Below are positions 8,678 to 32,885 of a stretch of DNA of 34,758 bases, piece after piece. Below the pieces are notes generated by a model. It made no database searches. It was not told the DNA's origin and saw only the letters and a program-made list of their open reading frames with translations. This stretch comes from an uncultured Candidatus Poseidoniales archaeon (GTDB lineage Archaea; Thermoplasmatota; Poseidoniia; Poseidoniales; Poseidoniaceae). The position numbers were made by a program, and so were the translations under genes. Each line of letters starts with the position of its first letter. Positions within the stretch are counted from its first letter, which is position 1. The stretch lies in assembly GCA_964009815.1 (NCBI GenBank), contig CAXGJQ010000002.1:1-34758 (forward strand), given 5' to 3'.

Positions 8678-8710
8678 GAACTCACCGTCTGCAAAGGCTC
8701 CGCCTCGCTC

Positions 8711-13501: not shown

Positions 13502-16027
13502 TCAGCGACTCATGACTGCACGGTGCACCATGGTCTGAACTTCCCGCATCCGGGCCTTGGCGCCCAGTTCTCGGAAGACCGTCAATGCCCGCTGAAGGTA
13601 TTCCATGCGACCTTGTTTGTCGGGAGCGACGCCTCCAAGGCGGGTGAGCAACTCACCAATCTGCATTCGCAAGTCGTTGGCTTCTGCCAAGACCAAGGCT
13701 TGACCGTAGTGCTCAACCGCTTCATCAGTCCGTCCAGCATCATGAAGCACCTCACCGAGGAGCATGGTAATTTCAACCAGGGATTGGACGTCACCCGCTT
13801 CGTTCATCGCTTCAAGGGCTTCCGTGTAGTGGAAAAGCGCCAATTCAGACTGCTCCACCTTGGAATAGTAACGACCGAGCACGGATTGGGCTCTTGCATG
13901 CAGTACCGCATCGCCGAGGGCTGACGTTCGCTCGTGAGAGGCCATGGCATGCTCTCTCGCCCGTTCAACCTCTCCAAGTTCAATCAGCGAACGAGCAAGG
14001 GTGATTTGACTGTAAATCAACTCATCATCAGTCGACCCCTCAAGGATTGCTTCGACCTCACCGTAGGCCTCAAGCGCTTTGTTTCGTTCGTTTTTTCGTC
14101 GCAGAAGGTAGCCGATGTTGTTGTACGTTCGAGCCGCCCAACGAGCATGTCCGAGTGAAATGTAGTGCTTGAGGGCAGATTTGTGGCGAGTCAATGAAAG
14201 CTCGCTATTCCCTTGCTTGCGGCTTACATCAGCCAGCGAAGACAAGATTTCAGCCTGAATCAGATCATCTGAATTTTTCTTCGCTAATTCAAGGGTGTTG
14301 TTGAGCAGTTCCTCGGCTTCCTCAAGACGCCCAAGGAGGGCGAGAATATCGCCTTGAAGTTGGGCCATTCGGATGATAACAACCGCCTCCAGGTCCTTTG
14401 TTTCAATTTGCTCAATCAATCCGAGGAGTTCCATATAACCCTGTGAAATCAGTTGTCGTCCTTCTTTGACCACCAGAGCGGAGGCCTCCTCAAACTGGCT
14501 TGACTTGATGGAGTGGTAAACCAATTCAATCAGCATATCATGCGATGATGTTTGTTTTTGATACCATTCAACGCACTTTGCGTGGAACTCTTCTCGCAGC
14601 GCCGTCGAGAGGCTACGGAGAAGAAACTCTCGAATGAGATCGTGAACGTCATAGGTTTCTGCATCGGCTTGACGAGCGAGTCCGGACTCTACCAGACTGT
14701 CCAATTCATCGGTGTTGAGTTTCTGTTGTGCCAAGGCTTCCAAGTGAACGGGCTCTCTAAAAATGGAAAGAGCGGAGAGTACCCGCTTCTGTTCCGCACT
14801 CAGCTTAGAGAAGATTTCAACGGTGACATAATTTTCCAATGTCTCGTGAAAAGCCCCGGCTGAGGCTCCACGGTTAATCAATTCCAACACGAGAGGATGG
14901 CCTCTGGAAAGACCGTGGATGTGGAGCCATTGTTCGTCTTCCATGGATTCAAAACTGGTGAGTAATTTTCTCCCAGATTCAGGATCAAGACCGTCAAGTG
15001 GCAGGACAAGGCTCGCAATTCGACCTTCGGCGTCTTTGGTGGGTACGACGGGTTTGAACGACCGTGAAAAGAGGACAAGACCAATCTTTTCTTCACTTCC
15101 AAGAAGGGCGAGTGACATCGCTTGGAAAGTTTGGTGAAGAACCATGTCAGAGACCTTGTGGAAATCGTCGATCACCAGCAAGGATGGAGTCCCTTCCAAC
15201 GCTTCGACCAAGAGGCGAGCTGCATCGGCCGGTTGGGGAACCGGGGTTGCGGCAAGATAGGTCGAGAATTCGGCATTGCCCATGCTCGAGAGCCAATCCG
15301 CAACGGATTCAAAGAACGAACGAGAACCTTCCCAGTCTTGACAGCGGTGATACAACAAGTTCCGACGATGCATGAATCGCTCAATCAATTTCGAGGCAAC
15401 CGTTGTTTTTCCAATGCCAGCAATTCCTGGGACCAGAAGGGTCGTCGCCCGTGCCTCAATGAGGTTCACCATGTTGTCCAGTTCGGTCGTTCGGCCGTAG
15501 AAATGTCGGAGTCGCGGGAGGTCAGCCAGCGAAGTGACAAGTTGCTTTTCAACATGCTTTGACAAGTCGCGCTCAACCAAATCCGCCGTCAAGTTCCTCA
15601 CATCAAGGCAGTTGTTATCATCGATGTAACGGATGATGTCAACCGGTCGCATTTCGAACGGAAGCACGCCTTTGGCACCACCCAATGTGGTCGAGACCGC
15701 CGGCTGTTCGTCCAAGATGCAGCGAACGGGTAAATCGGCAAGGCGCTCCCATGTTTCATTGGCGAGAATTACGCCACTGTCGGTCAAGAAGTAGGCCTTG
15801 CGTTTCCTAGAAACGCCTTTCACGTGGGCTTGGCGCTCAACAAGAATGCCTTGGTCTTTCAGTCCTGCAATGGCCCTCGGTACGTTCGAGCGGGCGATGG
15901 CGACCGCATTGGCAATGCCCATTTGGGAAAGGGCAAAGGGCACCTCAATGCTATCCTTGAAGTCGGAATAATCCAACAAATGGAGCAGGATCCGTTCCTG
16001 CACGCCTGGTTTTGCCTGTGCGGCCAT
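13502..16027 (-). CDS. STAND-like signal-transduction ATPase: N-terminal winged-HTH, P-loop NTPase, C-terminal TPR array (putative transcriptional regulator)
   Basis: 841 aa. Residues 1-100 look like a wHTH (MGIANAVAIARSNVPRAIAGLKDQGILVERQ). FYGRTTELDNM precedes Walker A at LLVPGIAGIGKTTV (15404..15427). Walker B is LLVIDDFH. The C-terminal ~300 aa consist of amphipathic A/L/E/Y-rich 34-residue-type repeats (for example ARTYNNIGYLLRRKNERNKALEAY and ALFHYTEALEAMNEAGD). Confidence 0.75.
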   Translation of the reverse strand: MAAQAKPGVQERILLHLLDYSDFKDSIEVPFALSQMGIANAVAIARSNVPRAIAGLKDQGILVERQAHVKGVSRKRKAYFLTDSGVILANETWERLADLPVRCILDEQPAVSTTLGGAKGVLPFEMRPVDIIRYIDDNNCLDVRNLTADLVERDLSKHVEKQLVTSLADLPRLRHFYGRTTELDNMVNLIEARATTLLVPGIAGIGKTTVASKLIERFMHRRNLLYHRCQDWEGSRSFFESVADWLSSMGNAEFSTYLAATPVPQPADAARLLVEALEGTPSLLVIDDFHKVSDMVLHQTFQAMSLALLGSEEKIGLVLFSRSFKPVVPTKDAEGRIASLVLPLDGLDPESGRKLLTSFESMEDEQWLHIHGLSRGHPLVLELINRGASAGAFHETLENYVTVEIFSKLSAEQKRVLSALSIFREPVHLEALAQQKLNTDELDSLVESGLARQADAETYDVHDLIREFLLRSLSTALREEFHAKCVEWYQKQTSSHDMLIELVYHSIKSSQFEEASALVVKEGRQLISQGYMELLGLIEQIETKDLEAVVIIRMAQLQGDILALLGRLEEAEELLNNTLELAKKNSDDLIQAEILSSLADVSRKQGNSELSLTRHKSALKHYISLGHARWAARTYNNIGYLLRRKNERNKALEAYGEVEAILEGSTDDELIYSQITLARSLIELGEVERAREHAMASHERTSALGDAVLHARAQSVLGRYYSKVEQSELALFHYTEALEAMNEAGDVQSLVEITMLLGEVLHDAGRTDEAVEHYGQALVLAEANDLRMQIGELLTRLGGVAPDKQGRMEYLQRALTVFRELGAKARMREVQTMVHRAVMSR

Positions 16028-16060
16028 ACCTCAACCCTCAGTCACGCTCACTGTTGAGGT
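16028..16060 (-). other. 8-bp stem hairpin spanning the 20-nt junction between the beta-helix gene stop and the STAND regulator start
   Basis: acctcaac (16028..16035) pairs perfectly with gttgaggt (16053..16060), leaving a 17-nt loop. The stop codon of the upstream gene (16048..16050) sits in the loop/stem and the regulator's ATG (16025..16027) abuts the stem. Confidence 0.4.
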
Positions 16061-19000
16061 GGTTGCTGGTAGTTGGGGTCAGGAACCCACTGGTTGGTCG
16101 CTTGGTCCCAGAGCCATCCCGGGTGTTGGGACGAAGCCGCTGCTGCTTCGACTCCTGGAGCCACCGCTGCTGCTTCTTGTGGAATCGCGGGAGTTTGCTT
16201 GGCCTTGGCCCATGCGTACGGGTCTTCCTCAACGGGGCTGTCATCACCGGTCAGTTCATCCTCATCGGGAATTTCTTCGAATTCAATGAAGAAGAAAGCG
16301 CCCGCTCCAAGAAGGACCAAGACGGCCAAAACGATGAGAATGATGCTGATCACGCCAGAACCTCCGTCATCGCCGCTGGACACCACGATGGCGAATTCTG
16401 CATTATCGGTTTGACCTGCGAATTTGAAGATCTGTCCGTCCATCTCAAAGATGACGTCCGATGAACCTTCAATACCGCTGAGTTGCCCTGCGTTGAGTTG
16501 CATGTTCCATGAACCATCCGAGAGGACACGAGTGGAGTTGAGCTTTGCATTTCCATCGGAAAATCGTGCAATAACGAGACTGCCTGGCAGACCTTCACCT
16601 TGGAATTCGGCAGGGTCATTCACGGTGATATCTCCAGTGTCGGTTCGCTCTACCGTGAACGAAACAGCCCGCACGAGGAAGTTCATTCGCAGCGAGAAGG
16701 CTTTGGATTCTTGGTCATCTTGGGCGTAAACAATCACGCTGTTCAGCGACCAATCGGGTATGCTGGCGGTCGTTTGAGCCATGTAGGACATTGGGTCATA
16801 GGTGAGAACGCCGAGTGGTGTGATGGTAATGAAGTCGTCATAGAAATCATCCTCGATGGTCTCATCATCGTCAAAGACGTAAAATTCGAGGTCATTCCCT
16901 GCAACACCCGTTCCGTCGGGGTCTGAAAAGAATTCAGCGAGGTCAAAGGTCACACCGCCTCCACATCGGTCAAACGAATTCGAGTTCGCATCACAAAAGA
17001 TGGTCCATGTGGAAACCCATCCGGTTTCGTTGAACAGAGGGTCAAGGTTTTCGGCATCCAATGGATTGTTGATGGTCATTCGCCAAACGGATACTTCGGA
17101 ATAATCATCGCCGTCGTAAGCCTTGACGGAAACGGAGTAAACGCTGTCGTGAACCAACTTAGACGTGTCCCAAGTAGCCACCCACGAGCCGTCAATGGCG
17201 AAGTTGGTCACCGGCAGCGGACCATTGTTCAGGACGATACCGTTGGCCAAATCAGTGATTTCAATCTCAACACGGGTCACGAAACCTCCGATGTCCCGAG
17301 CAACCCCAATGATCTTGGTTTCTTCCGAGGCACGAATGGTATCTCCGTCAATGCCGCCAGAGGACTGGTCTTCGGCTCCAATCCAAGAGAGTTGGAGGTT
17401 GGGAGGGATGTTGTCGTTGTTGATGGTAATGGTTCGGGTCTCAACGACACACGCTGATGAATCGTCAATGCAGAAATCGCTGTCAGCAGCCCACACCTCT
17501 ATGGTGTAGTCCCCTGTGGGTAATTCGGAAACCAACCATTCGTACGACCAACTGGTAGAACCCTGCTGGAAGAATTGCTGTTCGAAATCGTTTGGCCCCA
17601 TGATGTGGAACCAAATTTGTTGGACATCGCTGCCGTAAGTTCCCTGATACGGGTCAGAAGCCGTTCCTTGGAAGAGGACCCTACCGTTTTGATGAACACT
17701 ACCTTCCGTGGGGACGTCAACCAAGATGGTTGGCGGGACAAGGTTGAGTTTGTACTGGCGCACCTCAATGGGCGAGTAATCCAAACCGTCGTAGGACCGA
17801 ATACGGAACGTAATGTCGCCCTCACCTTCTGGATGAGCGGCTCCGTCCCATTCGTAGACCCAATCCTTGAACGGATGTGTTTCCATGGTGATTTCACCGT
17901 TGGCACCGGATAAGTCTGAGGCGTAGAACCAATCGCTGGAACCAGGTGGCTGAATCTCAACCCGCTTCACCATTCCGAACTGGGCTTGTTGGGCGGTGTT
18001 GTCATTGGCGTAAGGCCATTTGGCACCGTCCCATGCCTGTCCCGTTATGCGAACAGTCGTGGCGTAGGAATAGCCATCGGGTTCGTTGACCCACACACCG
18101 GGGCGGAGGTTTTCGAGGTTGATGACATCGTCAATCGGTCCAGTGAGTACGTAGGAGAAGTCATCGGTACCACTGCCGAACTTGGAGGCTTCAACGGTAT
18201 AGAACGGGCGCTCTCGGCCATTGATACAGTCAGAGTCATCGCCGTCGACATAGGTATCTCCGTCGTTGTCAATACCGTCTGCGCATGAGTCTTCGTCAAC
18301 GACGACGGGTTGACCAGTTCCATCGTTGGAACCAGGGATGGCTGCGTTCTTATCACCCACGATGTGGTTCCAGTTGCGGTCAAGGAGGAAGTCGGATGGA
18401 AGAGAAACCTCGGGCGTGAAACCAAAGGCGTCCGTGGTCAATTCGTAGAGTGGAAGACCGGTCGAATCCTTGATAATGACCGTGGCACCCTCAACGTTGG
18501 AGTTCTTGGCCTTCACTTGGTATCGCACCAATTCACCCTCACGAACCTGTGAGCCCCAAGCTGTGTTTTGATTTTGAATGTGGATCATTGAGGAATCGAA
18601 GTTTTGCAGGTCAGCAAATGAAAAGACTGTAGCGTTTTCGACAAGTTCCAATGCAAGTGGCATGCCGGTAGGGGGCAAGGCAACGGTTCCGGGAAGTTGC
18701 AAACATTCGTCTTGGACGAACGGACACTCAGCGCCCAGCCAACGGATGTTGACCGGGTAAAGTTCGCCGTATCCAGGAGATGGAATTTGCTCAGATTGCA
18801 CAGTAACTCGGGATTCTGTGACGTTGTAGACTTGAGAAACGCCCGTCCATGAATTCCCAGAGAAGTAGGCGATGGACCCGTATTTGTTACCATAATTGTC
18901 ATCGTGAACACTTACGTTGCCAGCGAATCCACCTTGGGAATCAGCGGTGTTTCGCTGCACGTTGATGAGCGAACCCTTGGCTCGAATGATATCCCCCGTG

Positions 19001-20427
19001 TTATCGGTGATGATGTTGTCAAGGATGGTGGCCGAAGAACGGAACACGTGAACAGCAGGACATGGGAAGTCGCCGTCGTACATTTGGGAGTTGCAGGTAC
19101 CTGAGTTGTTCGAAATGGCGTTGTTAGCGAGGTAAAGGCGAGCAGCCGTAGGTGCGGGCACCTGCCAGCCTTGGTCTTGGTAGTGATATTCACCGATCAA
19201 GACCGGCTCTTTTGCAGTTTCCGAGATGGTGTTGTTTTCAGCGATAACATCCGAGGTTCCGTAAATCCATATGCCGTTCCAACCACCAATGGGACCAATG
19301 TTGTTGTTGTGGAGTTCAACAACTGAGCTCCGAATACCGACACCTGAACCATCCGATGCCCCGGAGATGGTGTTTCCTTCTGCATACACTTTGGCTCCGT
19401 CGTAAGCGGTAATTCCCGCACCCTCTTCTGTGGTGATGTCGTTGTTGTTCACCTCGAGTGTGTGTTCAATGATGCCAGTGGTCTTGAGCGAATTGGTGTC
19501 GACAGCGTTGCACTTTACATCAATTTTTGAATTCGTAAGGGTACCCGAACTTGATTTCATGAGAACGCCGTATGCGTTGTCTTTGATGTCGAGGTTGTCC
19601 ATGTCAATGTAGGAATTCTCGATGTAAATCACTGCACGGCCACCGCCTTGCTGACCACAATCGGCATCGTTGCCCGTAAAGGCGGAATTCTTGACCTCAA
19701 ACGTCGAAAGAATACCTGCTCCTGCGTCATAGGCTCGAACGGCGGCAGCGTCGTATCCCTGTCCGTCAACACCGAGTTCGAAGGTTGAATCGGTGAGGAG
19801 CGGTGAGGCGAAATCTACGGCGATAACGTTGGAGGTATTGATGTCCGTGAAGGTCAGACCTCGAGCGGTTGTGCTTGAACCGTCAAAGACGATGGCACCG
19901 TATTGAACGGATTGAAGGGAAGCAACGTAGATTGGGTAGCCGTAAGCGTTCTCAAAGTGCGCATAGTTGATGGAAGTGACGGCTTGGTCAATGGTGTCTC
20001 GAATGATCAAGCCAGAGCCACACGCCGCATCGGGGTTGTTGAGGACATTGCTGTCGGCGACCAAGCATCGTCCAGTCTTGGTGTAGTCCGTTGGAAGCGA
20101 CCAGATGAAGCGAGCTTGGGACGAAGATGAACCTGCACTTGCACCACAAGCGGCGTCTCCAATGCAGATACCACCCTTCACGTCGATGAATTTCCCGAAC
20201 GGGATGTTGATGGTGGTTCCTGCGTTGACAATGAGCTTAGCACCTTCAGCGACTTCGACATCCCCTTGCAGGTTCATGGTGCCAGACCAGGTCTCGGTGC
20301 CTGTCACGGTACCCTGTGTGGTTTCATTGACGGCTGAGGCGGCGGGAACGCTGACCATCACCATCAGAAGTGACATCATGTAGAGCATCACGAGAGAGAC
20401 GGATTTGGTTCGATTATTTTCAGACAT
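16048..20427 (-). CDS. Surface-anchored protein with right-handed parallel beta-helix (PbH1/NosD-like) repeats, Ig-like domains, C-terminal TM helix and 78-aa cytoplasmic tail
   Basis: The track ORF is 16048..20502. I prefer the ATG at 20427 (MSENNRTKSVSLVMLYMMSLLMVMVSVPAASA/VNE, a clear signal peptide). TATTATAT lies 35 nt upstream of it and GGTGA lies 7 nt upstream. Beta-helix turns are visible, for example NSYIDMDNLDIKDNAYGVLM, NNNDITTEEGAGITAYDGAKVYAEGNTISGASDGSGVGIRSSVVELHNNNIG, ENNTISE, LANNAISNN and LDNIITDNTGDII. Ig-like modules follow. The TM helix GVISIILIVLAVLVLLGAGAFFFI lies at about 16285..16356. Confidence 0.75.
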   Translation of the reverse strand: MSENNRTKSVSLVMLYMMSLLMVMVSVPAASAVNETTQGTVTGTETWSGTMNLQGDVEVAEGAKLIVNAGTTINIPFGKFIDVKGGICIGDAACGASAGSSSSQARFIWSLPTDYTKTGRCLVADSNVLNNPDAACGSGLIIRDTIDQAVTSINYAHFENAYGYPIYVASLQSVQYGAIVFDGSSTTARGLTFTDINTSNVIAVDFASPLLTDSTFELGVDGQGYDAAAVRAYDAGAGILSTFEVKNSAFTGNDADCGQQGGGRAVIYIENSYIDMDNLDIKDNAYGVLMKSSSGTLTNSKIDVKCNAVDTNSLKTTGIIEHTLEVNNNDITTEEGAGITAYDGAKVYAEGNTISGASDGSGVGIRSSVVELHNNNIGPIGGWNGIWIYGTSDVIAENNTISETAKEPVLIGEYHYQDQGWQVPAPTAARLYLANNAISNNSGTCNSQMYDGDFPCPAVHVFRSSATILDNIITDNTGDIIRAKGSLINVQRNTADSQGGFAGNVSVHDDNYGNKYGSIAYFSGNSWTGVSQVYNVTESRVTVQSEQIPSPGYGELYPVNIRWLGAECPFVQDECLQLPGTVALPPTGMPLALELVENATVFSFADLQNFDSSMIHIQNQNTAWGSQVREGELVRYQVKAKNSNVEGATVIIKDSTGLPLYELTTDAFGFTPEVSLPSDFLLDRNWNHIVGDKNAAIPGSNDGTGQPVVVDEDSCADGIDNDGDTYVDGDDSDCINGRERPFYTVEASKFGSGTDDFSYVLTGPIDDVINLENLRPGVWVNEPDGYSYATTVRITGQAWDGAKWPYANDNTAQQAQFGMVKRVEIQPPGSSDWFYASDLSGANGEITMETHPFKDWVYEWDGAAHPEGEGDITFRIRSYDGLDYSPIEVRQYKLNLVPPTILVDVPTEGSVHQNGRVLFQGTASDPYQGTYGSDVQQIWFHIMGPNDFEQQFFQQGSTSWSYEWLVSELPTGDYTIEVWAADSDFCIDDSSACVVETRTITINNDNIPPNLQLSWIGAEDQSSGGIDGDTIRASEETKIIGVARDIGGFVTRVEIEITDLANGIVLNNGPLPVTNFAIDGSWVATWDTSKLVHDSVYSVSVKAYDGDDYSEVSVWRMTINNPLDAENLDPLFNETGWVSTWTIFCDANSNSFDRCGGGVTFDLAEFFSDPDGTGVAGNDLEFYVFDDDETIEDDFYDDFITITPLGVLTYDPMSYMAQTTASIPDWSLNSVIVYAQDDQESKAFSLRMNFLVRAVSFTVERTDTGDITVNDPAEFQGEGLPGSLVIARFSDGNAKLNSTRVLSDGSWNMQLNAGQLSGIEGSSDVIFEMDGQIFKFAGQTDNAEFAIVVSSGDDGGSGVISIILIVLAVLVLLGAGAFFFIEFEEIPDEDELTGDDSPVEEDPYAWAKAKQTPAIPQEAAAVAPGVEAAAASSQHPGWLWDQATNQWVPDPNYQQPPQQ

Positions 20428-20462
20428 CAGCAATTCACCGGTTCTGTCCATGAACGCCACGA

Positions 20463-20470
20463 ATATAATA
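20463..20470 (-). promoter_or_regulatory. Candidate archaeal TATA box (TATTATAT) for the beta-helix surface protein gene
   Basis: The minus strand reads TATTATAT-(35 nt)-ATG(20427). It lies in the most AT-rich intergenic stretch of the window. Confidence 0.4.
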
Positions 20471-20490
20471 CTGCGCCTCATTTGGCAAAA

Positions 20491-20520
20491 AAAGAATATC
20501 ATTAGACTGAAAGAATATCA
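20491..20520 (-). promoter_or_regulatory. Perfect 11-nt direct repeat (plus strand AAAGAATATCA, minus strand TGATATTCTTT) x2 with 19-nt period, just upstream of the candidate TATA box
   Basis: The copies are at 20491..20501 and 20510..20520. A third GAATAT core at 20461..20466 overlaps the TATA candidate. Confidence 0.35.
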
Positions 20521-20574
20521 ATTAATTTGCCGGATTCACGCACTATGTTGTAAGGAAAGGGTAGAAATTACGAT

Positions 20575-20621
20575 AAAAATGCGAGATTTCGGCAAATCAA
20601 ATTCAGCTGAATACGACAAAA
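20575..20621 (-). terminator. T4 and T5 tracts downstream of the subtilase stop
   Basis: The minus strand reads TGA gtgcga TTTT gtcg ... cgca TTTTT atcg. Confidence 0.3.
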
Positions 20622-20627
20622 TCGCAC

Positions 20628-21836: not shown

Positions 21837-21878
21837 GGCTCACGCTATCCCACTGTTTTCCTCATGAACCCTTGTTTG

Positions 21879-21893
21879 AAAAATCAAGCAAAA
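21879..21893 (-). terminator. T4 and T5 tracts within 25 nt downstream of the aglB stop
   Basis: The minus strand reads TGA tgttcac TTTT gcttga TTTTT caaac. The same T-rich element could also act as a TATA-like element, since it lies about 40 nt upstream of the subtilase ATG. Confidence 0.35.
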
Positions 21894-21900
21894 GTGAACA

Positions 21901-24900: not shown

Positions 24901-27273
24901 GGCTTCTGGCTCTGCGATGAGTTCAATCGATGAAAGTGGCTCAGTATTTGAGCGATTGATGACCAAGTCCTCAACCGTTGAAACGTTGAGGCGTTCGTCG
25001 GAAACGGTCAGGTCCCATACTCCGTTGGGAAGGTCGAGGGCGAACTCTCCAAACTCGTTAGCGATGGTGGTCCATATCAAACCTGCATCGTTTGTAGCGA
25101 TGATTTCAGGAGCCTCCCACATCGGGAAACTTGAATCCCATCGGGTGCTGTTCTCGTAGAGGTGAACCACTCCGTTAAGGAGGGTGGTAGGTTGAATGTA
25201 GAGCATTCCAAGGTCAGTGTCTGTGCCCGTCTCAACGGCCACAAGGGCCCCGTATCCGCGATTGGTGACAACGCTCTCGGTGGTCAGGTGGTATGTGAAA
25301 CCGGAGGGAACACGCACGGAGAAGTATCCCGTGAGATTGGTGACCGCAGCGAACTCAAGATTGTCTGAAACAAAGTTCACGGTCAAGCCATTCGCTGGTT
25401 GCGTGGTTTGTTCTCGGTTTTCTTCCGGTGTTTCATCGTACCAGGTGTTCCATTCCTCAACCGTGACGCCGGGGTAGTTTCGCATTGAACCGTTGATGTA
25501 AGCGGCTTGAGCATAGGTGACGTCCTTAGCAAGGTCCTCAGTACCGGGCACAAGTTCGATTTGGTCGAAGAGCACGAACTCAGGGTTCACATCGTCGCGA
25601 ATGTCCCAAACACCGAACAGAAGTTCAGCATACAAGTCTCCATTTTCATCGCTTGTGACGTTGATTGGGTCGAGCAAGTCAATTTCGTTTTGGAACGTAA
25701 TGGTCCGGTTTGCCACATCAAAGAGCGGTTCTTGTGTCAATGGGTCCACCGGTGAAACAAGGGTCAAAGTGACGTCCACTGTGTCGGGCACATTGAGGTC
25801 CAACGTGATGTTGGTTGTGTCCGTAATGACAAAGATGGACTCGTTAAAGTCGTACCATCCGTCGTTGTCAACGTCCCCGCGGTAGTAGTAGTCTCCTGGC
25901 GGGATTGGGCCGTAAGAGAAGTTCCCATCTTCATCGGTTGGAATCATAACGGCAAACTCTTCGCCAAGGTCAACATCAACAAATTCAATGGTTTGGTTTG
26001 CCATTGCATCGCCGTGCATGTCCTTGAGGGTGTCCTTGAAAATGGCACCAGGCATGGTCATGGCAAGATCGTAAGTTGGGTCAATACCGATTTCAACCGG
26101 GTCTGGCAAAAGAACTTCCTTTCCATTAGCGAGCTGAGCAATCATGTTGTAGGTACCAGGAAGAAGACCCGTCTTGTAGAACGAACCAGGTTCAACCATT
26201 GGGCCAGAGAAGGTTCCAACACCGATGAACAATCCGGTTCCGTTGAACGTTCCAGTTCCTTCGAACAATCCTGCACCTTCAAGGGTTTCACCCTGTCCAG
26301 CATCGGCATCACCGTAGGTCCGGCTGAGCGTCGATGTGCCTTCTGAAGTGAAGGTACCCATGGCGTCAACCGTGCCTTCAAGGCGATAGGTTGGTGTGTC
26401 ACCGCTGTCATCGATGAGACAGAAGGTTTCATTCACCGGCATCACGGGATTGGATTGATTATCTGAATCACAAGCAACCACGTCTGATGGTTCCACCCAA
26501 GAGGCTTCAAGCACACCGTTTCCGGACCAAGTGCCGTTGGCAGAGAAGGAGCGCTCGTTGCCAATATCACGGGTAAATTCGCCAATGAAATTGCTGGCAA
26601 GGGCAATGCCTTCGCTGTCAAAGGAGCCATTCTCCACCAGTGTAGCTTCACCGGTTCCTTGGAGGATTCGTGATTCATCTGATGTGAACGAACCACTCGT
26701 GGTTTCGACGGTGTAGTTGTCGGTCATGGACCAAATGTTTCGCAAGATGAAGGTTGTTTCAGCGATAGGTTCGCCGTTGAATTCTTCGTCTCCGGACCAC
26801 ACGACGGTACCCGAAACACCGCTGCTGTCAACGGTTATGTCGAGTTCGTCATCCATGTCGACCATGCGGTTTGCTTCGTCGGCAGTGATGTTGAGTTGAG
26901 ATTCACCCAACCACGTCATGTTGGCAACTTCGCCCAACAAAGCGGTGATTTCGTTGACGACTCGGTCATCGTTGGTTTCGGTTAGGATATCGCTGAGTCG
27001 CTCACCATAGGAACCGTCGCGGATGTTATCTCGTGCGACCGTAGGGTCAAAATCACCTGCAAAGGCGGACACACGAATGCGGCCTGCTGGGGCGAGGAAA
27101 TCGTAATTTCCTTCTTCATCAGCGTCAACGAATCCAATAGGGACCCAGTAAGTGTCCTCATCAAGGTCTTCGCTGCCTTCACCGGAGAAAGCATCGCGCT
27201 CAATCAACAATCGGACACCAGAGAGCCCTTCTCCGTTATCGCCCATGGTTACTTGACCGGTCAATTCTGCACC
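21901..27273 (-). other. C-terminal ~1,790-aa extracellular extension of the AglB protein: array of CarboxypepD_reg/Ig-like modules, CARDB/NEW3-like modules, terminal TM anchor
   Basis: At least nine recurrences of the D-x-x-G-x-(F/Y)...P-x-G-x-(Y/W) beta-sandwich signature: DEEGNYDFLAPAGRIRV, TDEDGNFSYGPIPPGDYYY, SDENGDLYAELLFGVWDI, NLTGYFSVRVPSGFTYHL, NEFGEFALDLPNGVWDLTV, SDENGSFAAYVPAGEWLVIV, TDAEGNSTELLMPGTWSFYF and TDDEGVWRVFVPIRDVYNVTV. CARDB-like segments are FSFALTNDGNGQDTFTIELL...GETRTQQFTVFAP and VRVPIVNEGLLDAPSVIVYL. The terminal helix WMTLLIALLAILVVYGGV lies at 21937..21990, followed by RTARSRGGTKF. Confidence 0.65.
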
Positions 27274-30200
27274 GGGGTAGTACTTCAGAATCTTCACGAG
27301 GGTATTCGTTGATTGAATTTGGTCTTCAGGAGCTTCACTGTACCAGTTGGCGATGACAAAGTGGTTCATCATGGCACCAGGCAGGGGCAGAGCGTTGGTC
27401 AAAATCGTACCAGGCGATCCGGATTGTCCGAAATGCTGTGATGGTTGAGGGTTGCTGGAACCGGCATCGAGTCCGAGGGTGGACGCACCATAGCCGACGT
27501 AGGTCCTTGCCACCATCGTGTCAAAGAAGGCAGGATTGTGGTCAACACGGACGTCCTCGATTTGGAGCATATCAATGTCAGCACCAGCCTGTTGGTTGAG
27601 GAAATCCTTCTGCATTGCATCGTCAACCTCTTCTCGAGTCATCTCATCTTGGAAGTCTCCACGAACGGTTTCGTAAACTTCGTTCATGTATGTGGTGATG
27701 TCCTGTCCTGCCAAGATGGTCGGTGCACCAAAGATACCCATGGGTTGACCACGGTTGTAATTGGAGTCCGCCGTGTATCGACCGGCGCGAGGGTAAAGTC
27801 GGTCGTCGATGGCGAAGTAGCGAATATCGTGGTCTCGAGTGATGGTTTCACCAGGAGCACCTTCGTAATCTTGCACCTTGTAGGGGCTGTTAAGATTGAT
27901 GAGGTCGTTGTAGAGGTCGTGGATGTTGTAGACGGGGTGGGCATCCATTGCAGATGTGAGAAGTTGCGTTGCCAAGGCCAAACGGGCGTTCTTTCGGTGG
28001 ATGGACGTCGACACTGAGAGGTACTCATCCAACAAATCATCGGTATACCAGTACTCACCAATGATGGTGTGGCTGCGACCTTCAACGGTTTCTTCAGACG
28101 TTCGCACGTTGTTGTTGAAGGTGATGTCGGCTTGCTCCATTGAGCTCCAAGCATCACCCTCACAGGAATTGGAGAGGGCATCAGTGCAGGGAATCGCTTC
28201 ACCGTCTTTGTAAATCTTGTAGACCTTGTTGTCGTCAAAGATACCGGCGACATGGGTGTATCCTTCGGCCATGACCACGTTTCGATTTGACTTGACCACG
28301 TTGAATGAGCGCTCTTCAATGAATTCAATCATCGACTCATCAAAGGTGAGTTGCATGGTGTTGAATTCAGCCAGTTGGTCGTCGTCAAGGTACTTGTCCA
28401 TGACGTTCATGAAAGGTTCCGTGAATTGATGATTTACGCCTTCAGTAGCGTAGGCTCGGTCGCCTTCTGAAAGTTGCCAGATGAACATGGCTGTCAAGTC
28501 ATCCTGGTTGCGTGCAAGAAGCATGTTCCCTGTGGCAGGGATACCTGACTGGAAGTTGTCTGAAACCGATGGGTGTTCGCCGGTGGCCAGTGCTTGGAAA
28601 CCATAGTCCCACCATGAGACAAAGGCAGGTTTCTCTGAATACGCCATATCAGCGTCCTGATTCGCCAACCAGTCGTAGGCCGCATTCCAGCCGTTGTCGT
28701 TGAAGGACGAACCGAAGCTACCCAAATACCGACGTCCATCGTACGTACTGCTGTCAAGAATCGAAAAGCCAAGTCCGTCGAAACGAAGGATATCGGGCAT
28801 GATGTTGTAGATCTTCTCATCAATTTCGCTTTCTTGGTTGGAGGTGCCGGGGATGGCCGAGTCCAAACCGTAGGTGGCTTGTTGCCCGAAAATCATGATC
28901 ATCACGAGGAAGACCGCAGAGAATTGCGGTGTACGCCATACGGCTTTGCGAGCACCGGAGATGCGGTCAGCCGGCGTGCGAATACCGAATTTCTTCCACG
29001 AACGAACCAAGCGACCCCAATCAGCCCACTTCCAGAACGCCATGATTCCAGCCGCTCCAAGAATGGCCATGATGGGCGTAGCGTTGAACATGAAACGAGC
29101 AGCGTTCCAAGCCATGAACGTGGCTGCAAAGACCCAGACACCAAACACCAAAGCGGTGCCATTTCGATGCCGAAGACCTCGCCAAAGAAGTCCGCCGCCC
29201 ATGATGAGAGCGAGCAAAAACGTGATCGGTCCAAAGGAGGCGAAGAGTTGAGCACGGTTCGGTGCATTCGCTTCAGCAACCGTGCCGAAAATCTTGGTCT
29301 TGGTGAAGTAGCCGCTGCCGGTGAACAGGACATCCCAGGCGTTGGAAAGTTCCAACGTCTTGAGGACGTAAAGGATGGCAAAGAAGACGGTAGCAACGGC
29401 GGTGAGTGTGCCGAGAACGAGCAACCAAGGCTTGTCTCGGAAACCGGTTGTCACGTAGGCAATGGCCAGCGTGAATCCAAAGATGAACAAGAAGGGTTGC
29501 AGTCCTGTTGGGTCAAACACCAAATTGAATTGCGGGTGTGCATAGAATGGTAGAACCATCAACAAAATGGTGGTCAACATCACGAGGAACATCACGCTCA
29601 AGGTGGTTGAATCACGGCGGCGGAACATGTTCAGGGCCACTTGCAGGGCGTAAGCCAAGAAGAGGATCGAAGGACCGACGACGAACCCTTTCCATCCGAG
29701 GGCGACGATTCCAAACGCGACACCAGCAAGGGCCGCGTTCGCCATGGCAGCTTGTCGATGCTGGGCAACGTCGTTGAAAGCACGCACAAAGGACATCGGG
29801 TGAGCCGATGTTGTCTTGGTTATGCGAGCTGAGCCGGCATACTTGACCGCACGGAGCCAGTACATGAAACCGATCGAGATGAACAACATCACGAAGGCAT
29901 CGTGGTCAGCCAGAGCCCACGTGGAGTGGGTGACGTGAGCAGGCATGAAGGCGATGAGCCAGGCAGCCAGAACGCCAGCGCCTTTGCCGAAGTGGTCCTT
30001 GGCCATGATGGCGATGGGGAACACGGTCAAAGCTCCGTAGATGGCTGGTAGAGCAAGCATGCTCCACCAAACCGCATCTTCGGGATTTGAGAGGAAGGGT
30101 TCCAACACCATAGCACCAATGGCCATCGACCAGGTGAAGAGCGGGGGACGTGGGTTGATGCCGCCGACTGGATAGAACCGGTCGGCGTCAAACACCAGGT

Positions 30201-31464
30201 GGGCATTGTTGGCGAGGATGTAGTCCACGACGCGCTTCATGTACCAAGGGTCAGAACCACCGGTCATGTCCCAGTTACCCGTTCCAAAAGCATTCATGGA
30301 TGGAACCGCGTACCACTGTACACGGATAGCCAGACCAATGAGGAAGGCCAAACCGACCATCATACCTGCTCCGTGGGCTCGAAGGAAGAGGCGCGCCTGA
30401 GAGGGCTCGTGCTCTCCGAGGTTGGCCCAACCGCCGTAGCGTTCATGGTTCCCAATGGAATAGATTCCAACACTGAGGAAGAAGGTGATGGCAAGCCAAA
30501 TCAAGGCACCCCACGTTCCGTCAAGATCCTCGTTGTACCAAATTCCTGCTTCAAACCAAGCAGCCACTTGGTAGAGCGTCCACATCGAACCAACGAACAT
30601 GGCACGGGTGTACCATCGCTCCGCCACCATACCGGCGACGATAAGGGCAACAACACCGGTCAAGAAAGCGCTCCAATAGCCGGCATAGCCGTGGTATCCG
30701 TTTTCCGTAGTGATGCCAAGTTGGTCGATCACATCGACGCTGTTGAAGTGCCAAAGTGAACCTGCAAAAACGACGACCCACATGCTGAGCGCACCCATCA
30801 ATGGGAGAGCAGAGCGATTGAATCCGTTTGAGTGGCCGAGGAACGAGAACCATCCCTCTTCTCCCGAGGGATTGATTGTACCTCGAGCAAGCACACCGGC
30901 CAACAATCCAGCCGCCGTGGTCATGGTCCAGTAGGCAAAGAAGACGTACGCGGTGGCCTGGCGTTCCAGATTCATCGTGGAAACAAGCTGTCCGCTTTCC
31001 ATGCTGTACGTTGAAGGGAGGGCAGCGTAGGTGTCTCCAGCTGCCGCTATGGCCAGCCAAAATCCAATGGCTGAGAACGTCATAGCCGTTCTCCACTCGT
31101 GGCGTCCACGAAGGTCAAGATTTGACCCAAACACGACGAGCAAGGCGAACATCAAGGCCGCAACCGCATCGACGTCAGCAAAAGCGTACAGCAATTCAGC
31201 GCCGACAAGAGCAAACACCAAAACGCCGAGGGAAAGGGTAGAGGTGGAAAGACCAGGCTGAGATTCCTGAACGATGCGTGGCACCAAAGCCAGCATGCTA
31301 GCGACAGCGACGACGAGCATCGGCATCATGTTGTTCAATGTCAAGTCGTATTCAATGCCCACGACTCGTGTGGTGGCAAGAGCGAGCAGCACGGCCAGAG
31401 GTGCAAGCAGCAACCCCATCACGGCACTTGGCTGACTCGCCTTCATATCCATTTGTTCATCCAT
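21901..31464 (-). CDS. aglB: Giant AglB/STT3-type oligosaccharyltransferase fusion protein (3187 aa)
   Basis: One uninterrupted ORF. The WWDYG catalytic motif is at codons 951-955. A polytopic membrane region lies upstream, with an acidic first external loop (GGSDPWYMKRVVDYILANNAHLVFDADRFYPVGGINPRPPLF) typical of STT3/AglB. About 10 extra TM helices precede the core. About 1,790 residues of repeated Ig-like modules follow it, and the protein ends in a TM helix and a basic tail. Confidence 0.88.
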   Translation of the reverse strand: MDEQMDMKASQPSAVMGLLLAPLAVLLALATTRVVGIEYDLTLNNMMPMLVVAVASMLALVPRIVQESQPGLSTSTLSLGVLVFALVGAELLYAFADVDAVAALMFALLVVFGSNLDLRGRHEWRTAMTFSAIGFWLAIAAAGDTYAALPSTYSMESGQLVSTMNLERQATAYVFFAYWTMTTAAGLLAGVLARGTINPSGEEGWFSFLGHSNGFNRSALPLMGALSMWVVVFAGSLWHFNSVDVIDQLGITTENGYHGYAGYWSAFLTGVVALIVAGMVAERWYTRAMFVGSMWTLYQVAAWFEAGIWYNEDLDGTWGALIWLAITFFLSVGIYSIGNHERYGGWANLGEHEPSQARLFLRAHGAGMMVGLAFLIGLAIRVQWYAVPSMNAFGTGNWDMTGGSDPWYMKRVVDYILANNAHLVFDADRFYPVGGINPRPPLFTWSMAIGAMVLEPFLSNPEDAVWWSMLALPAIYGALTVFPIAIMAKDHFGKGAGVLAAWLIAFMPAHVTHSTWALADHDAFVMLFISIGFMYWLRAVKYAGSARITKTTSAHPMSFVRAFNDVAQHRQAAMANAALAGVAFGIVALGWKGFVVGPSILFLAYALQVALNMFRRRDSTTLSVMFLVMLTTILLMVLPFYAHPQFNLVFDPTGLQPFLFIFGFTLAIAYVTTGFRDKPWLLVLGTLTAVATVFFAILYVLKTLELSNAWDVLFTGSGYFTKTKIFGTVAEANAPNRAQLFASFGPITFLLALIMGGGLLWRGLRHRNGTALVFGVWVFAATFMAWNAARFMFNATPIMAILGAAGIMAFWKWADWGRLVRSWKKFGIRTPADRISGARKAVWRTPQFSAVFLVMIMIFGQQATYGLDSAIPGTSNQESEIDEKIYNIMPDILRFDGLGFSILDSSTYDGRRYLGSFGSSFNDNGWNAAYDWLANQDADMAYSEKPAFVSWWDYGFQALATGEHPSVSDNFQSGIPATGNMLLARNQDDLTAMFIWQLSEGDRAYATEGVNHQFTEPFMNVMDKYLDDDQLAEFNTMQLTFDESMIEFIEERSFNVVKSNRNVVMAEGYTHVAGIFDDNKVYKIYKDGEAIPCTDALSNSCEGDAWSSMEQADITFNNNVRTSEETVEGRSHTIIGEYWYTDDLLDEYLSVSTSIHRKNARLALATQLLTSAMDAHPVYNIHDLYNDLINLNSPYKVQDYEGAPGETITRDHDIRYFAIDDRLYPRAGRYTADSNYNRGQPMGIFGAPTILAGQDITTYMNEVYETVRGDFQDEMTREEVDDAMQKDFLNQQAGADIDMLQIEDVRVDHNPAFFDTMVARTYVGYGASTLGLDAGSSNPQPSQHFGQSGSPGTILTNALPLPGAMMNHFVIANWYSEAPEDQIQSTNTLVKILKYYPGAELTGQVTMGDNGEGLSGVRLLIERDAFSGEGSEDLDEDTYWVPIGFVDADEEGNYDFLAPAGRIRVSAFAGDFDPTVARDNIRDGSYGERLSDILTETNDDRVVNEITALLGEVANMTWLGESQLNITADEANRMVDMDDELDITVDSSGVSGTVVWSGDEEFNGEPIAETTFILRNIWSMTDNYTVETTSGSFTSDESRILQGTGEATLVENGSFDSEGIALASNFIGEFTRDIGNERSFSANGTWSGNGVLEASWVEPSDVVACDSDNQSNPVMPVNETFCLIDDSGDTPTYRLEGTVDAMGTFTSEGTSTLSRTYGDADAGQGETLEGAGLFEGTGTFNGTGLFIGVGTFSGPMVEPGSFYKTGLLPGTYNMIAQLANGKEVLLPDPVEIGIDPTYDLAMTMPGAIFKDTLKDMHGDAMANQTIEFVDVDLGEEFAVMIPTDEDGNFSYGPIPPGDYYYRGDVDNDGWYDFNESIFVITDTTNITLDLNVPDTVDVTLTLVSPVDPLTQEPLFDVANRTITFQNEIDLLDPINVTSDENGDLYAELLFGVWDIRDDVNPEFVLFDQIELVPGTEDLAKDVTYAQAAYINGSMRNYPGVTVEEWNTWYDETPEENREQTTQPANGLTVNFVSDNLEFAAVTNLTGYFSVRVPSGFTYHLTTESVVTNRGYGALVAVETGTDTDLGMLYIQPTTLLNGVVHLYENSTRWDSSFPMWEAPEIIATNDAGLIWTTIANEFGEFALDLPNGVWDLTVSDERLNVSTVEDLVINRSNTEPLSSIELIAEPEAIDVVMHVYLNAAEDGTFENGTMATPAFSLRPIDENQDSIYYTAEDYTEPGIITVSLTPGGYDLVFNRTAASDENATDYDLVGEQFFDAIRISLDAIEDPVDVALKNTYLVSGTLFNTTNEGIANEFLLYNEADDEWFNLGSDENGSFAAYVPAGEWLVIVAPFANGDNTETLRQPLTVDANSDRLNLNMTTSLSVEVSMQLLEAVTESPLSDMTVTAVSHDGFGNITFDRTDAEGNSTELLMPGTWSFYFNRTIGTKSWFMDTSDAPFTTDLADENNSLTLDPVYAVLEVEIGGKVYWDLDNNSVPSFGEGLPGMNVTIVGDNNSEFSTTVATDDEGVWRVFVPIRDVYNVTVEKEGFETVYYETVNQTGYTVHDSPDSTDIEVTAGLVDAEGTVTDQLDADRLVGASIVLYPVAGVEREPVEVSGTMNGTTLEWSASVQPGEWVVVVSQTNLGPNGGGVAVGLLDASVANGGNISMTMALGGFVELATAWTDIEQNEHHAGADSDGFSMIQEAVELEVTFDDMAWMMDVPASGQLRELFPEGGVSFDGEFMTVQHSSQLEMEYFGGQTTTINADSTISATLNFNRRVNSALDISFSADSLTDGTLLNAVDGEIEAIVSSSNESVYSVITFDYEVVYNGTETMDIFSVEGEMGLAQDSDLWNVQFWNASADDGQGAYEDTINVALGIGDNSTEAVLSTTVKVQITLPDVADAWHLTNGHRMTLRLETDLGESSQGSVKVFVPQSFGFTVSDATEELGMSALVERQFSFALTNDGNGQDTFTIELLESGIPEDWSVTPMASTLTLNKGETRTQQFTVFAPESFTEGDFDLTVYVNSQDENVERQEVEVSIKKATIYLTLDTARIATESDLIADKVGAVRVPIVNEGLLDAPSVIVYLTPPNGAELSQSIAVPAGGEGVAVFEGLTFMQGNQRFDYRVEVAGAEANSVESKPSDDDFALEYNIESTADGESIWMTLLIALLAILVVYGGVRTARSRGGTKF
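28600..28614 (-). other. WWDYG catalytic motif of the AglB/STT3 domain
   Basis: The plus strand reads accatagtcccacca, whose reverse complement tgg tgg gac tat ggt encodes WWDYG. It is in frame with the ATG at 31464 (codons 951-955). Confidence 0.9.
30340..31464 (-). other. N-terminal extra polytopic membrane module (about 10 predicted TM helices) fused ahead of the AglB core
   Basis: Codons 1-375 contain about ten hydrophobic stretches of 18-24 residues, for example VMGLLLAPLAVLLALATT, MMPMLVVAVASMLALV, LSLGVLVFALVGAELLYAF, AVAALMFALLVVFGS, AMTFSAIGFWLAIAAAG, AYVFFAYWTMTTAAGLLAGVLA, LPLMGALSMWVVVFAGSLW, SAFLTGVVALIVAGMVA, MFVGSMWTLYQVAAWF and GALIWLAITFFLSVGIYSI. They precede the helix that corresponds to AglB TM1 (GAGMMVGLAFLIGLAIRVQWY). 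TM calls were made by eye. Confidence 0.6.
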
Positions 31465-31520
31465 ATGTATCCCTCATTTTAGGTCCAGCCTCAAGGCTGG
31501 CGTCGTTTGCCACTTCTGAA

Positions 31521-31530
31521 CCCTTTTTAG
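31521..31530 (-). promoter_or_regulatory. Candidate TATA box (CTAAAAAGG) for the giant aglB gene, with hairpin and GAGGG in the predicted leader
   Basis: The minus strand reads CTCTAAAAAGGG-(about 58 nt)-ATG(31464). The predicted leader contains the hairpin CCAGCC-TTGA-GGCTGG (31485..31500) and TGAGGG 6 nt before the ATG. Confidence 0.3.
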
Positions 31531-31597
31531 AGATGATGGGTTACTAAGGAGGCCGGTGTCTCTCAGTCGCCCTTTTGCTTATGATGGAAATTACGGT

Positions 31598-31603
31598 AAA
31601 AAA
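31598..31603 (-). terminator. Oligo-T tract (T6) 8 nt downstream of the purD stop
   Basis: The minus strand reads TAA ttcagcg TTTTTT acc. Archaeal intrinsic termination typically uses oligo-T tracts. Confidence 0.45.
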
Positions 31604-31610
31604 CGCTGAA

Positions 31611-32885
31611 TTATTGGATGGCTCGATGGGCAATATCCGTACGGAAATGACCACCCTCAAGGTCAATGTTCGACAGCAAATCATAGGCCATTTCCTGAGT
31701 GGTTTTGAGGTCAATCCCGAGGGCTGTGCACGAAAGTACACGCCCGCCGGAAGCGATGAAATCTCCACCCTCGTTCTGTGAAACTCCAGCAAAATTTACC
31801 CATGCTGTCCCGTAGTTTGCCGAGGCAGAAAGCTCAGCCAACCCACCGAGCAATCGGCCTTTCTTGGGAGAAGCAGGATAGCCCTCGGAGGCGAGAACAA
31901 CGGTGACGGCCGAACCGCCGTGAAGATGAAGTTCAACTTCGTGCAATCCATCGGTGGCAGCTCCATGAAGGAGGTCGTACATGTCGGTGCGGATGAGGGG
32001 CAGCGTGACTTGGCATTCTGGGTCGCCGAACCGGACGTTGAATTCCACCACGTACGGATCGTCGTGTTGGTCGATCATCAAACCGATGAACAGAACACCG
32101 CGGTAGGGGACCTCAAGCGCCGACAAATGTTGATGCATTGGCTCAACGATTCGGGTGATGATTTTCTCGTGCACGGACGGGGAGACCACAGGGGCGGGGC
32201 AATAGGCACCCATTCCACCTGTGTTGGGACCTTTATCGCCATCGTAGGCCCGCTTGTGGTCTTGGCTGGCGGGGAGCGCCCTGTACGCACCACCGTCCAT
32301 GACGACCAACATGCTGGCTTCTTCTCCGGGGAGGAAAGCCTCGAGGAGAACAAAACCATCGGTTTGTATTGAGGATTCGATGAACGTCCTTGCTTCGCGA
32401 CGGTCTTCGGTTACAACCACGCCCTTACCGCCAGCCAACACATCTCGCTTGACGACCCATGGATGGCCAGCATAGGTCTCCAGTGCTGCATCCACATCGC
32501 TATCTGCATCAAGCCGCAGGAACGCTGCAGTCGGCACACCTGCCGCTTGCATCGTTTGCTTGGCATGGAGTTTGGAGCCTTCCAAGTGAGCCAAGGCCGC
32601 GACAGGACCAAAACAAGCGAGGCCACGAGCAGCGCATGCATCGGCCAATCCCGCACATAACGGCGCTTCAGGTCCGACCACCACAAGGTCCGCTTCAAGG
32701 TGTTCAAATAACCCCACCAACGATTCCGTGGTCATTTCATTGGCATGGTTCGTGGCCAGTTGGGCTGTACCGGCGTTCCCGGGAACACAGTGAAGGGAAC
32801 CGACTCGAGGCGATGAATCAAGGGACAGGCAAAGGGCATGTTCGCGGCCACCGCTTCCAACCACGACAACCGTAGCTTTGTCCAT
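31611..32885 (-). CDS. purD: Phosphoribosylamine--glycine ligase (GAR synthetase)
   Basis: 424 aa. The N-terminal VVVVGSGGREHALC...PGNAGTA is the classic PurD signature. An ATP-grasp core follows. The C-terminal GGRVLSCTALG...AYDLLSNIDLEGGHFRTDIAHRA matches the GARS C-domain consensus. Confidence 0.95.
   Translation of the reverse strand: MDKATVVVVGSGGREHALCLSLDSSPRVGSLHCVPGNAGTAQLATNHANEMTTESLVGLFEHLEADLVVVGPEAPLCAGLADACAARGLACFGPVAALAHLEGSKLHAKQTMQAAGVPTAAFLRLDADSDVDAALETYAGHPWVVKRDVLAGGKGVVVTEDRREARTFIESSIQTDGFVLLEAFLPGEEASMLVVMDGGAYRALPASQDHKRAYDGDKGPNTGGMGAYCPAPVVSPSVHEKIITRIVEPMHQHLSALEVPYRGVLFIGLMIDQHDDPYVVEFNVRFGDPECQVTLPLIRTDMYDLLHGAATDGLHEVELHLHGGSAVTVVLASEGYPASPKKGRLLGGLAELSASANYGTAWVNFAGVSQNEGGDFIASGGRVLSCTALGIDLKTTQEMAYDLLSNIDLEGGHFRTDIAHRAIQ

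Follow-up and report, generated by a model that had tools for sequence, protein, structure and literature searches.

In the agl gene clusters of Haloferax and Methanococcus, aglB lies among glycosyltransferase genes. The oligosaccharyltransferase (OST) AglB-L of A. fulgidus (PDB 3WAJ/3WAK, 875 aa; GT66) has a multi-transmembrane (multi-TM) catalytic core, and enzymes of this family carry an acidic motif in EL1, a second DxD/DxH motif, a TIXE/SVSE motif in EL5 and WWDYG. Membrane-tethered S8 proteases encoded beside the machinery that they possibly serve are represented by the mycosins of type VII secretion, and right-handed beta-helices by carbohydrate-active proteins such as GH110, GH87, PL6, the AlgG/AlgE epimerases and phage tailspikes. 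Passages of Lisa et al. 2019 (PMC6468293) describe PH0952 of Pyrococcus horikoshii as a predicted transcription factor with N-terminal DNA-binding domain, NOD, arm and TPR sensor, and place its clade of TPR-sensor STAND proteins between MalT and APAF1. Genes that resemble each of these systems in part follow one another in the stretch of DNA analyzed here, a 34,758-bp contig of the 1.93-Mb genome (84.9% complete) of an uncultured Marine Group II archaeon of the genus Poseidonia (Poseidoniaceae, Marine Group IIa, order Poseidoniales, phylum Thermoplasmatota). The whole contig is called the window below. We read it, with a probability of about 0.6, as a vertically inherited core envelope-gene neighborhood of all Poseidoniales with three adjacent transcription units, in which AglB would be the general OST and a STAND protein would regulate its own operon.

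Gene identities were taken from a map of open reading frames (ORFs) and from Pfam scans, TM helices and signal peptides from hydropathy. The map shows a head-to-tail series of minus-strand genes: purD, encoding phosphoribosylamine-glycine ligase (31611-32885, 424 aa; Pfam GARS_N/A/C, 1e-22 to 4e-57), aglB, encoding an AglB/STT3 OST (21901-31464, 3,187 aa; STT3, AglB_core and CarboxypepD_reg, with a WWDYG motif), and genes for a type II membrane-anchored S8 subtilase (20628-21836, 402 aa; Peptidase_S8 116.5 bits, TM 54-77), a beta-helix/Ig surface protein (16048-20502, 1,484 aa; Beta_helix and Big_7) and a PH0952-type STAND protein (13502-16027, 841 aa; AAA_16, TPR_12 and a weak HTH match). The successive gaps measure 146, 64, 125 and 20 nt; the third grows to ~200 nt if the beta-helix protein starts at M26 (window 20427). 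An earlier note on this DNA had listed five consecutive minus-strand genes with gaps of 20 to about 200 nt, in agreement with the ORF map, and had estimated that five giant exported proteins fill about 70% of the window, which measurement puts at 24,660 of 34,758 nt, or 70.9%.

The block is old. Orthologues were searched in 60 relatives that cover 3 families and 12 genera of Poseidoniales, and a second sample of 80 Poseidoniaceae loci was fetched around the STAND gene. In 37 of the 60 relatives, 15 of them outside Poseidoniaceae, aglB, S8, beta-helix and STAND are found together on a single contig, with order and strand unchanged; in the remaining 23 the block is split at contig ends only (both counts were tallied by hand), and no rearranged block was seen among the 60. 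Collinearity thus extends to all 3 families and 12 genera sampled, and gene order and orientation are identical in 80/80 Poseidoniaceae loci, so that the conservation of the four genes as a block, which the earlier note had left to comparative genomics, is found across the whole order. Wherever the contig permits, purD is directly upstream of aglB, and this adjacency occurs in every family. Orthologues of the block genes are present in every genus, and their identities of 40-57% between families (purD ~54%, STAND ~52%, the N-terminal part of AglB ~43%, S8 ~43%, beta-helix ~41%; the neighboring gene g2, ~46%) speak for constrained core genes. Within Poseidoniaceae, STAND and the gene for an MBL-fold hydrolase evolve slowest, S8 and the AglB extension fastest (80-locus set). 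Among 151 Thermoplasmatota genomes, an S8 orthologue and a STAND orthologue adjoining aglB were found in Poseidoniales only, and we therefore place the assembly of the block in the ancestor of the order, which has kept it since. The block is real, old and part of the core genome, and it probably consists of two operon-like pairs beside an unrelated purD; a shared envelope function of the block is plausible. In the literature searched, no paper connects AglB or the block with Marine Group II or Poseidoniales. One paper lists an oligosaccharyltransferase among the genes of higher transcript abundance in metatranscriptomes in which the Thalassarchaeaceae genus O1 was active (PMC9723583).

AglB matches the STT3 domain with 51.8 bits (cut-off 24.5), or 60.6 bits in a scan of the whole genome, where it is the sole match; it is single-copy in the relatives. 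Alignment to 3WAJ brings GGSDPWY (EL1), ADHD, TVAE (TIXE-like, EL5) and SWWDYG to corresponding positions. The earlier note had considered that a normal-sized second aglB might exist elsewhere and the present copy be degenerate. No second STT3 gene was found in the genome and the tested catalytic motifs are present, and we therefore take this copy as the working enzyme. Since no other OST turned up in the genome (84.9% complete), it is not dedicated to the locus, and it probably serves the whole cell. In contrast to the aglB genes of the Haloferax and Methanococcus clusters, its gene is followed by that of a protease. The protein is 3.6 times longer than AglB-L: the STT3 core (~390-1000) is preceded by a multi-TM region of ~370 aa and followed by a sequon-rich beta-sandwich extension of ~2,100 aa and a second membrane anchor; hydropathy shows ~23 TM segments and, as this anchor, a C-terminal TM helix at 3153-3180. 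When sequons were counted against shuffled sequences, AglB had 43 where 24.2 were expected (z 4.2), and 40 of the 43 fall in residues 1251-3150. The ~370-aa N-terminal region had no counterpart outside the order among the 151 genomes, in which matches start at residues 333-401, mostly at ~368. Open frames of AglB measure ~3,160-3,540 aa across Poseidoniales and 2,060-2,850 aa in numerous further families of Thermoplasmatota, and the fusion of OST and extension is therefore much older than Poseidoniales. The match to TIGR04154, the archaeosortase-A-associated STT3 family, reaches 171.5 bits and stays below the cut-off of 450. Public annotations call AglB fragments “hypothetical” or “carboxypeptidase regulatory-like”.

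The stop codon of purD is directly followed by an oligo-T run, and aglB has a conserved promoter-like element of its own, as suits the view of the earlier note that purD is an unrelated housekeeping neighbor; purD probably forms a separate transcription unit. The element (31465-31532, minus strand) comprises a TATA-like CTAAAAA ~66 nt before the ATG, then a GC-rich block, the hairpin CCAGCC-N4-GGCTGG (31485-31500) and a Shine-Dalgarno-like GAGGG. Its ~70 nt are nearly invariant in the genus, although the adjoining N-terminal region of AglB is only 83-95% identical, and they are recognizable in all families. Covariation support for the hairpin is weak (3 consensus pairs by RNAalifold, of which 2 show compensatory changes). 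The idea of a structured RNA in front of aglB was discarded, since RNAalifold returned just this 3-bp consensus hairpin and Rfam had no match for the element.

The subtilase aligns its catalytic Asp (DTGID), His (HGT) and Ser (GSSDAT) blocks to those of Thermococcus Tk-SP (PDB 3AFG/9UES) and shares the S8 fold with it. By Pfam there is no propeptide or inhibitor domain (I9), and ~30 residues separate TM 54-77 from the start of the catalytic domain at residue 108. In 63 species the gap between aglB and S8 measures 46-130 nt, with a median of 64 nt. It contains no conserved terminator, promoter or other element, and a run of at least five T in only 8 of the 63, which fits co-transcription; the two genes are probably co-transcribed. 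With the same strand and short conserved gaps, the features expected of operons are found both for aglB-S8 (median 64 nt) and for beta-helix-STAND (median 22 nt, 80 species). Like the mycosins, the subtilase is tethered to the membrane and encoded beside machinery that it may serve. Mycosins supply the best NCBIfam match, which at 93 bits against a cut-off of 279 does not make the window protein a member of their family; it also differs from them in its N-terminal anchor, preceded by a conserved cytoplasmic head of ~55 aa, and in the lack of a detected propeptide domain. The head (window 21672-21836) carries the motifs ..EYLPEP.. and ..W..E..GWAP.. across Poseidoniaceae and EYLP or EFLP in other families, and its conservation suggests a cytoplasmic partner. 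A second S8 paralogue of the genome (G000:C5:4188-5078, minus strand), ~43% identical, is without the first ~100 residues, that is, without head and anchor. The unanchored type also occurs in other Thermoplasmatota, and the anchored copy beside aglB is specific to the order.

The beta-helix protein has a signal peptide, a right-handed beta-helix ectodomain, an Ig-like part, a TM helix at 1377-1412 and a cytoplasmic tail of 70 aa. The fold assignment comes from Pfam Beta_helix (57.1 bits) and from an AF2 model (pLDDT 77.7) that shows a right-handed beta-helix. Foldseek gives this model only generic matches to carbohydrate-active enzymes and tailspikes, at 3e-5 or weaker and with TM-scores of 0.2-0.35. 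The ~500-residue ectodomain thus shares its fold with GH110, GH87, PL6, AlgG/AlgE and tailspikes, at an identity of just 7-14%, and the window protein differs from all of these by its added Ig-like domains, TM helix and conserved cytoplasmic tail. It has no sequence match to any solved structure and no match to a CAZy-type Pfam family, and we place it in no enzyme family. In the tail, most positions of the motifs DPYAWAKAK and HPGWLWD..NQWVPDPNY are conserved in at least 95% of 80 species, whereas the intervening linker is variable, and WVPD is kept in all families. A six-frame translation of the genome contains WVPDP[SN]Y twice, in this tail (16072-16092) and near the C-terminus of the 744-aa pilin-like protein pil2 (12902-12922); both copies are conserved in Poseidoniaceae, and the coincidence may be due to chance.

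The STAND gene starts 9-67 nt after the beta-helix stop (80 species), and in the window a Shine-Dalgarno-like site precedes it. The protein consists of an N-terminal winged helix, NOD NTPase, arm and TPR sensor. A profile match to PH0952 (6MFV) covers residues 171-499 with an E-value of 6.9e-28, and 6MFV is also the top Foldseek match of the structural model (pLDDT 73; E 3.9e-15). AAA_16 scores 34.7 against a cut-off of 32.6, and TPR_12 84.9 bits. Pfam HTH_Crp_2 taken alone is below threshold (21 vs 27 bits); the model has a helix-helix-helix-hairpin winged helix at 9-81, and a helical repeat at 548-839. Foldseek also finds the TPR part similar to TPR domains of LGN/Pins and Rap that bind peptides. 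The near-invariant tail motifs of the beta-helix protein, set apart by a variable linker, make an interaction between tail and TPR a testable idea. The window protein thus has the domain order of PH0952 (DNA-binding domain, NOD as NBD-HD-WHD, arm, TPR sensor), and differs from it in sequence (~21% identity), in being a single-copy orthologue that throughout the order is the last gene behind a giant surface-protein gene, and in the repeat array at the promoter.

This promoter precedes the beta-helix gene. Most cross-family alignments of the beta-helix protein begin at M26, which is probably the real start (window 20427), and the BRE/TATA-like box GCGCAGTATTATAT (20463-20476, minus strand), kept in Poseidoniaceae examples, is located ~50 nt before the M26 ATG, within the mechanically called start of the ORF. 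Its TTATAT is kept in several other families. Immediately upstream is a direct-repeat pair of TGATAY (20496-20520, minus strand), spaced by 19 nt in the window and by 19-20 nt across loci. In 67 Poseidoniaceae loci, TGATAY occurs 2.8 times per locus where 0.19 copies are expected, an enrichment of ~15-fold; it lies ~70-79 nt before the M26 ATG in 66 of the 67 and ~90-99 nt before it in 62, and the other strand has 4 copies across all 67. The array (at about 5400-5540 in the relatives' loci L037-L116) also occurs in other families and is conserved across the order. Within a span of 22.5 kb it is unique to the beta-helix promoter. The TGATAY repeats are a candidate transcription-factor binding site. 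A wider TGATAY regulon was considered and dropped: paired TGATAY was found 3 times genome-wide against 2.2 expected, which is no enrichment, and it is absent from the rest of the 22.5-kb span, so nothing suggests that the motif also belongs to aglB, g2 or the pilin-like operon. The earlier note had called the module regulated; a regulator and a conserved repeat array at one promoter are indeed there, but the array is confined to the beta-helix promoter and does not extend to the whole block. An 18-nt repeat, TTTTTAYCGTAATTTCYA, has two copies in the 1.93-Mb genome, at 31585-31602 and 20562-20579 (minus strand), in front of aglB and the beta-helix gene, respectively. It was rejected as a shared motif of the block, as the copy at the beta-helix gene is not kept even in the closest relative; it may be due to chance or specific to the lineage.

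Outside the block, the window contains the giant secreted proteins and pilin-like genes that the earlier note had described as its flanks. The g2 gene (2927-8752, minus strand) encodes a secreted, acidic, sequon-rich protein of 1,941 aa with a signal-peptide-like TM segment at 31-52, and is collinear in all 12 genera, with 41-48% identity between families. The g1 gene (1-2991, minus strand), cut by the contig end, encodes the N-terminal 997 aa of an exported protein whose full-length form (~1,805 aa) is seen in the closest relative. On the plus strand are the MBL-fold hydrolase gene (8864-9676; Lactamase_B_2 match), three overlapping pilin-like genes (9709-10794, 10791-13025 and 13022-13501), and g12 (32935-34758), which is divergent from purD and encodes a CARDB surface protein (Pfam CARDB) with C-terminal TM helix and acidic tail. 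The pilin-like proteins all have an N-terminal hydrophobic helix and remain just under the Pfam thresholds (DUF7289 25.9 vs 27, Pilin_N 19.9 vs 25.2); the MBL gene also persists where the pilin genes are missing. STAND and the last of the pilin-like genes converge with no base between their stops (13501/13502; window 13499-13504), which leaves no room for terminators. Both g1 and pil2 are present in the same 47 of 61 genomes (7 of 12 genera) and absent from five small-genome Thalassarchaeaceae genera. The two genes are not adjacent (pil2 lies within 9709-13501); the shared pattern may reflect shared function or the losses of one lineage. Sequons are enriched in g2 (31 vs 15.2, z 4.7) and g1 (14 vs 7.9, z 2.5), and not significantly so in g12 (7 vs 4.5). 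The description of all five giants as sequon-rich therefore holds for AglB, g2 and g1, and fails for g12 and the beta-helix protein. No paralogy among the giant proteins was detected by BLASTP at 1e-3.

Two further genes were seen in the neighborhoods of relatives. In the closest relative, a surface protein of 319 aa encoded upstream of g12 (L026:3424-4383, minus strand) ends in PGFEVVP, a hydrophobic helix, GRR and an acidic tail, a PGF-CTERM-like sorting signal that hints at an archaeosortase system in the lineage. A secreted protein of 1,531-1,623 aa with six Lamin-tail domains and a PLD-type phosphodiesterase domain (LTD-PLD protein) is encoded at L026:9243-14114 (plus strand) and L017:3960-8555 (minus strand), with 42% identity between families.

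Together, these data suggest a model of three adjacent units. The first would be purD, a housekeeping gene unrelated to the rest. In the second, AglB would perform the general N-glycosylation of exported proteins, and its extension, pinned to the membrane by the C-terminal helix, would belong to the glycoprotein coat and at the same time serve its own catalytic site as a substrate; the anchored S8 subtilase, probably co-transcribed with aglB, would mature or trim coat proteins. The third unit would comprise, under the TGATAY-array promoter, a membrane-anchored protein with a beta-helix ectodomain of carbohydrate-binding type and the STAND protein, whose predicted winged helix would bind the TGATAY repeats and control its own operon depending on a ligand sensed by the TPR. 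Co-transcription, the binder of the repeats, the substrates of the protease and the coupling of aglB-S8 with beta-helix-STAND are parts of this model that we infer.

Several observations weigh against the model. The genes for purD, the MBL-fold hydrolase, g2, the 319-aa surface protein and the LTD-PLD protein are as fixed in place as the block itself, and the conservation of gene order may stem from a genome that is static overall, and not from a common function. No cis element common to the aglB and beta-helix promoters was found in relatives, and the beta-helix protein is not enriched in sequons (10, with 13.5 expected). The rates of S8 and of the AglB extension do not co-vary beyond phylogeny; with a residual correlation of 0.05, rate co-variation was abandoned as a hint of a protease-substrate relationship.

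The first of these points leads to an alternative in which the genes are unrelated neighbors, frozen in a slowly rearranging, streamlined planktonic genome, and even aglB-S8 and beta-helix-STAND would be mere neighbors. The closed genome of a Thalassarchaeaceae member (G051) illustrates the stability: upstream of purD it has positional counterparts of g12 (only 22% identity) and of a 409-aa membrane protein (24%), and further upstream those of the 319-aa surface protein (40%) and of the LTD-PLD protein of 1,623 aa (42%), so that the region is syntenic between families over more than 50 kb regardless of gene function. Because unrelated neighbors such as purD, MBL and LTD-PLD are equally collinear, synteny alone is no proof of shared function, and a conserved gene order alone supports it only weakly in this lineage. 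The absence of a promoter motif common to the units and of rate co-variation fits the same account. We nevertheless consider this alternative unlikely, since beta-helix-STAND and aglB-S8 have kept gaps of 9-67 nt and 46-130 nt, respectively, free of a conserved terminator, in 63-80 species, since in the window STAND follows a Shine-Dalgarno-like site with no room for a promoter, and since near-invariant cytoplasmic peptide motifs in the beta-helix tail adjoin the gene for a protein with a TPR sensor. The same motifs allow a bolder reading, which we put forward only tentatively and think improbable as a whole: beta-helix and STAND would be a one-step transmembrane signaling pair specific to Marine Group II, alongside AglB as an enzyme and coat protein matured by the subtilase. 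The beta-helix/Ig ectodomain would bind a polysaccharide or particle, the tail peptides DPYAWAKAK and HPGWLWD..NQWVPDPNY would be ligand or tether of the STAND TPR, which is of peptide-binding type, release or binding of the tail would switch the NTPase, and the switched protein would in turn act on the TGATAY array.

The earlier note had gone in another direction and read the whole stretch as one self-contained, co-regulated system for surface decoration or particle attachment. All components except the regulator and purD are indeed membrane or surface proteins, g2 and the block have been kept together throughout the order, the adjacency of AglB to S8 and to STAND is an innovation of Poseidoniales, and g1 and pil2 share one phyletic pattern. 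But AglB, as the only OST detected in the genome, cannot be dedicated to the locus, Pfam scans of the window revealed no glycosyltransferase or flippase genes for glycan synthesis, and the genome has ~89 crude ORFs of at least 900 aa on many contigs, several of them denser in sequons than those of the window. The locus also has at least 3 promoters or units with the repeat array at only one of them, and 5 of the 12 genera have the rest but neither the pilin-like operon nor g1. The proposal of a single self-contained, regulated module is weakened by these findings, the words “self-contained” and “dedicated” are not supported, and we regard it as distinctly doubtful. A strain-variable surface island, or a horizontally acquired anti-phage defense island built on a STAND NTPase and a protease (Avs-like), is very improbable. 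PADLOC does return matches for the subtilase (1e-21) and the TPR (5e-8), which are weak and generic, and on this ground the defense reading was set aside; the STAND effector is a winged helix and neither a nuclease nor a protease. Many contigs of metagenome-assembled genomes (MAGs) end just upstream of purD (less than 5 kb upstream in 16 of 31 relatives with the block on the plus strand) or are broken inside the AglB extension (~11 of 60; residues ~1400-3000, window 22400-27300), a hint of local microdiversity. These breaks suggest population microdiversity at two spots, not throughout the block, and the part that evolves fast and breaks assemblies lies, if anything, beyond purD, around g12. 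The earlier note had spoken of an island and hot spot of strain variation bordered by purD, and had pointed to composition as a check. The GC content is 0.532 in the window and 0.541 in the genome, the tetranucleotide distances of the 5-kb chunks of the window fall at the 47th-87th percentile, no tRNA was found in the window, Pfam scans of the window proteins turned up no integrase or transposase domain, and synteny runs on past purD. With STAND among the slowest-evolving genes of the block and the block present and collinear in every sampled genus, without patchiness, distribution and composition already contradict an island. What the locus has in common with the flexible genomic islands of marine plankton is the density of genes for giant exported glycoproteins; it differs from them by every property tested (composition, variable presence, mobility genes). 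Dense giant surface genes do not make a flexible island, tempting as this misreading is. As the order-wide collinearity, the typical composition and the presence of the genome's only STT3 gene show, the locus is a core neighborhood and not a strain-variable island.

Marine Group II is one of the most abundant groups of planktonic archaea. We know of no cultured member, nor of any account of their cell envelope or of how they sense particles. If the signaling pair exists, it would constitute, together with the giant AglB and the subtilase, the core of the envelope and surface-sensing apparatus in an abundant, uncultured order of archaea. The block yields candidates that are conserved throughout the order: the only N-glycosylation enzyme, which is part of a giant coat-like protein; its partner protease; and a surface protein that has a PH0952-type switch as its partner, along with a DNA repeat array and tail peptides, both of them defined. 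All of these candidates can be tested in vitro, with no need to culture the organism.

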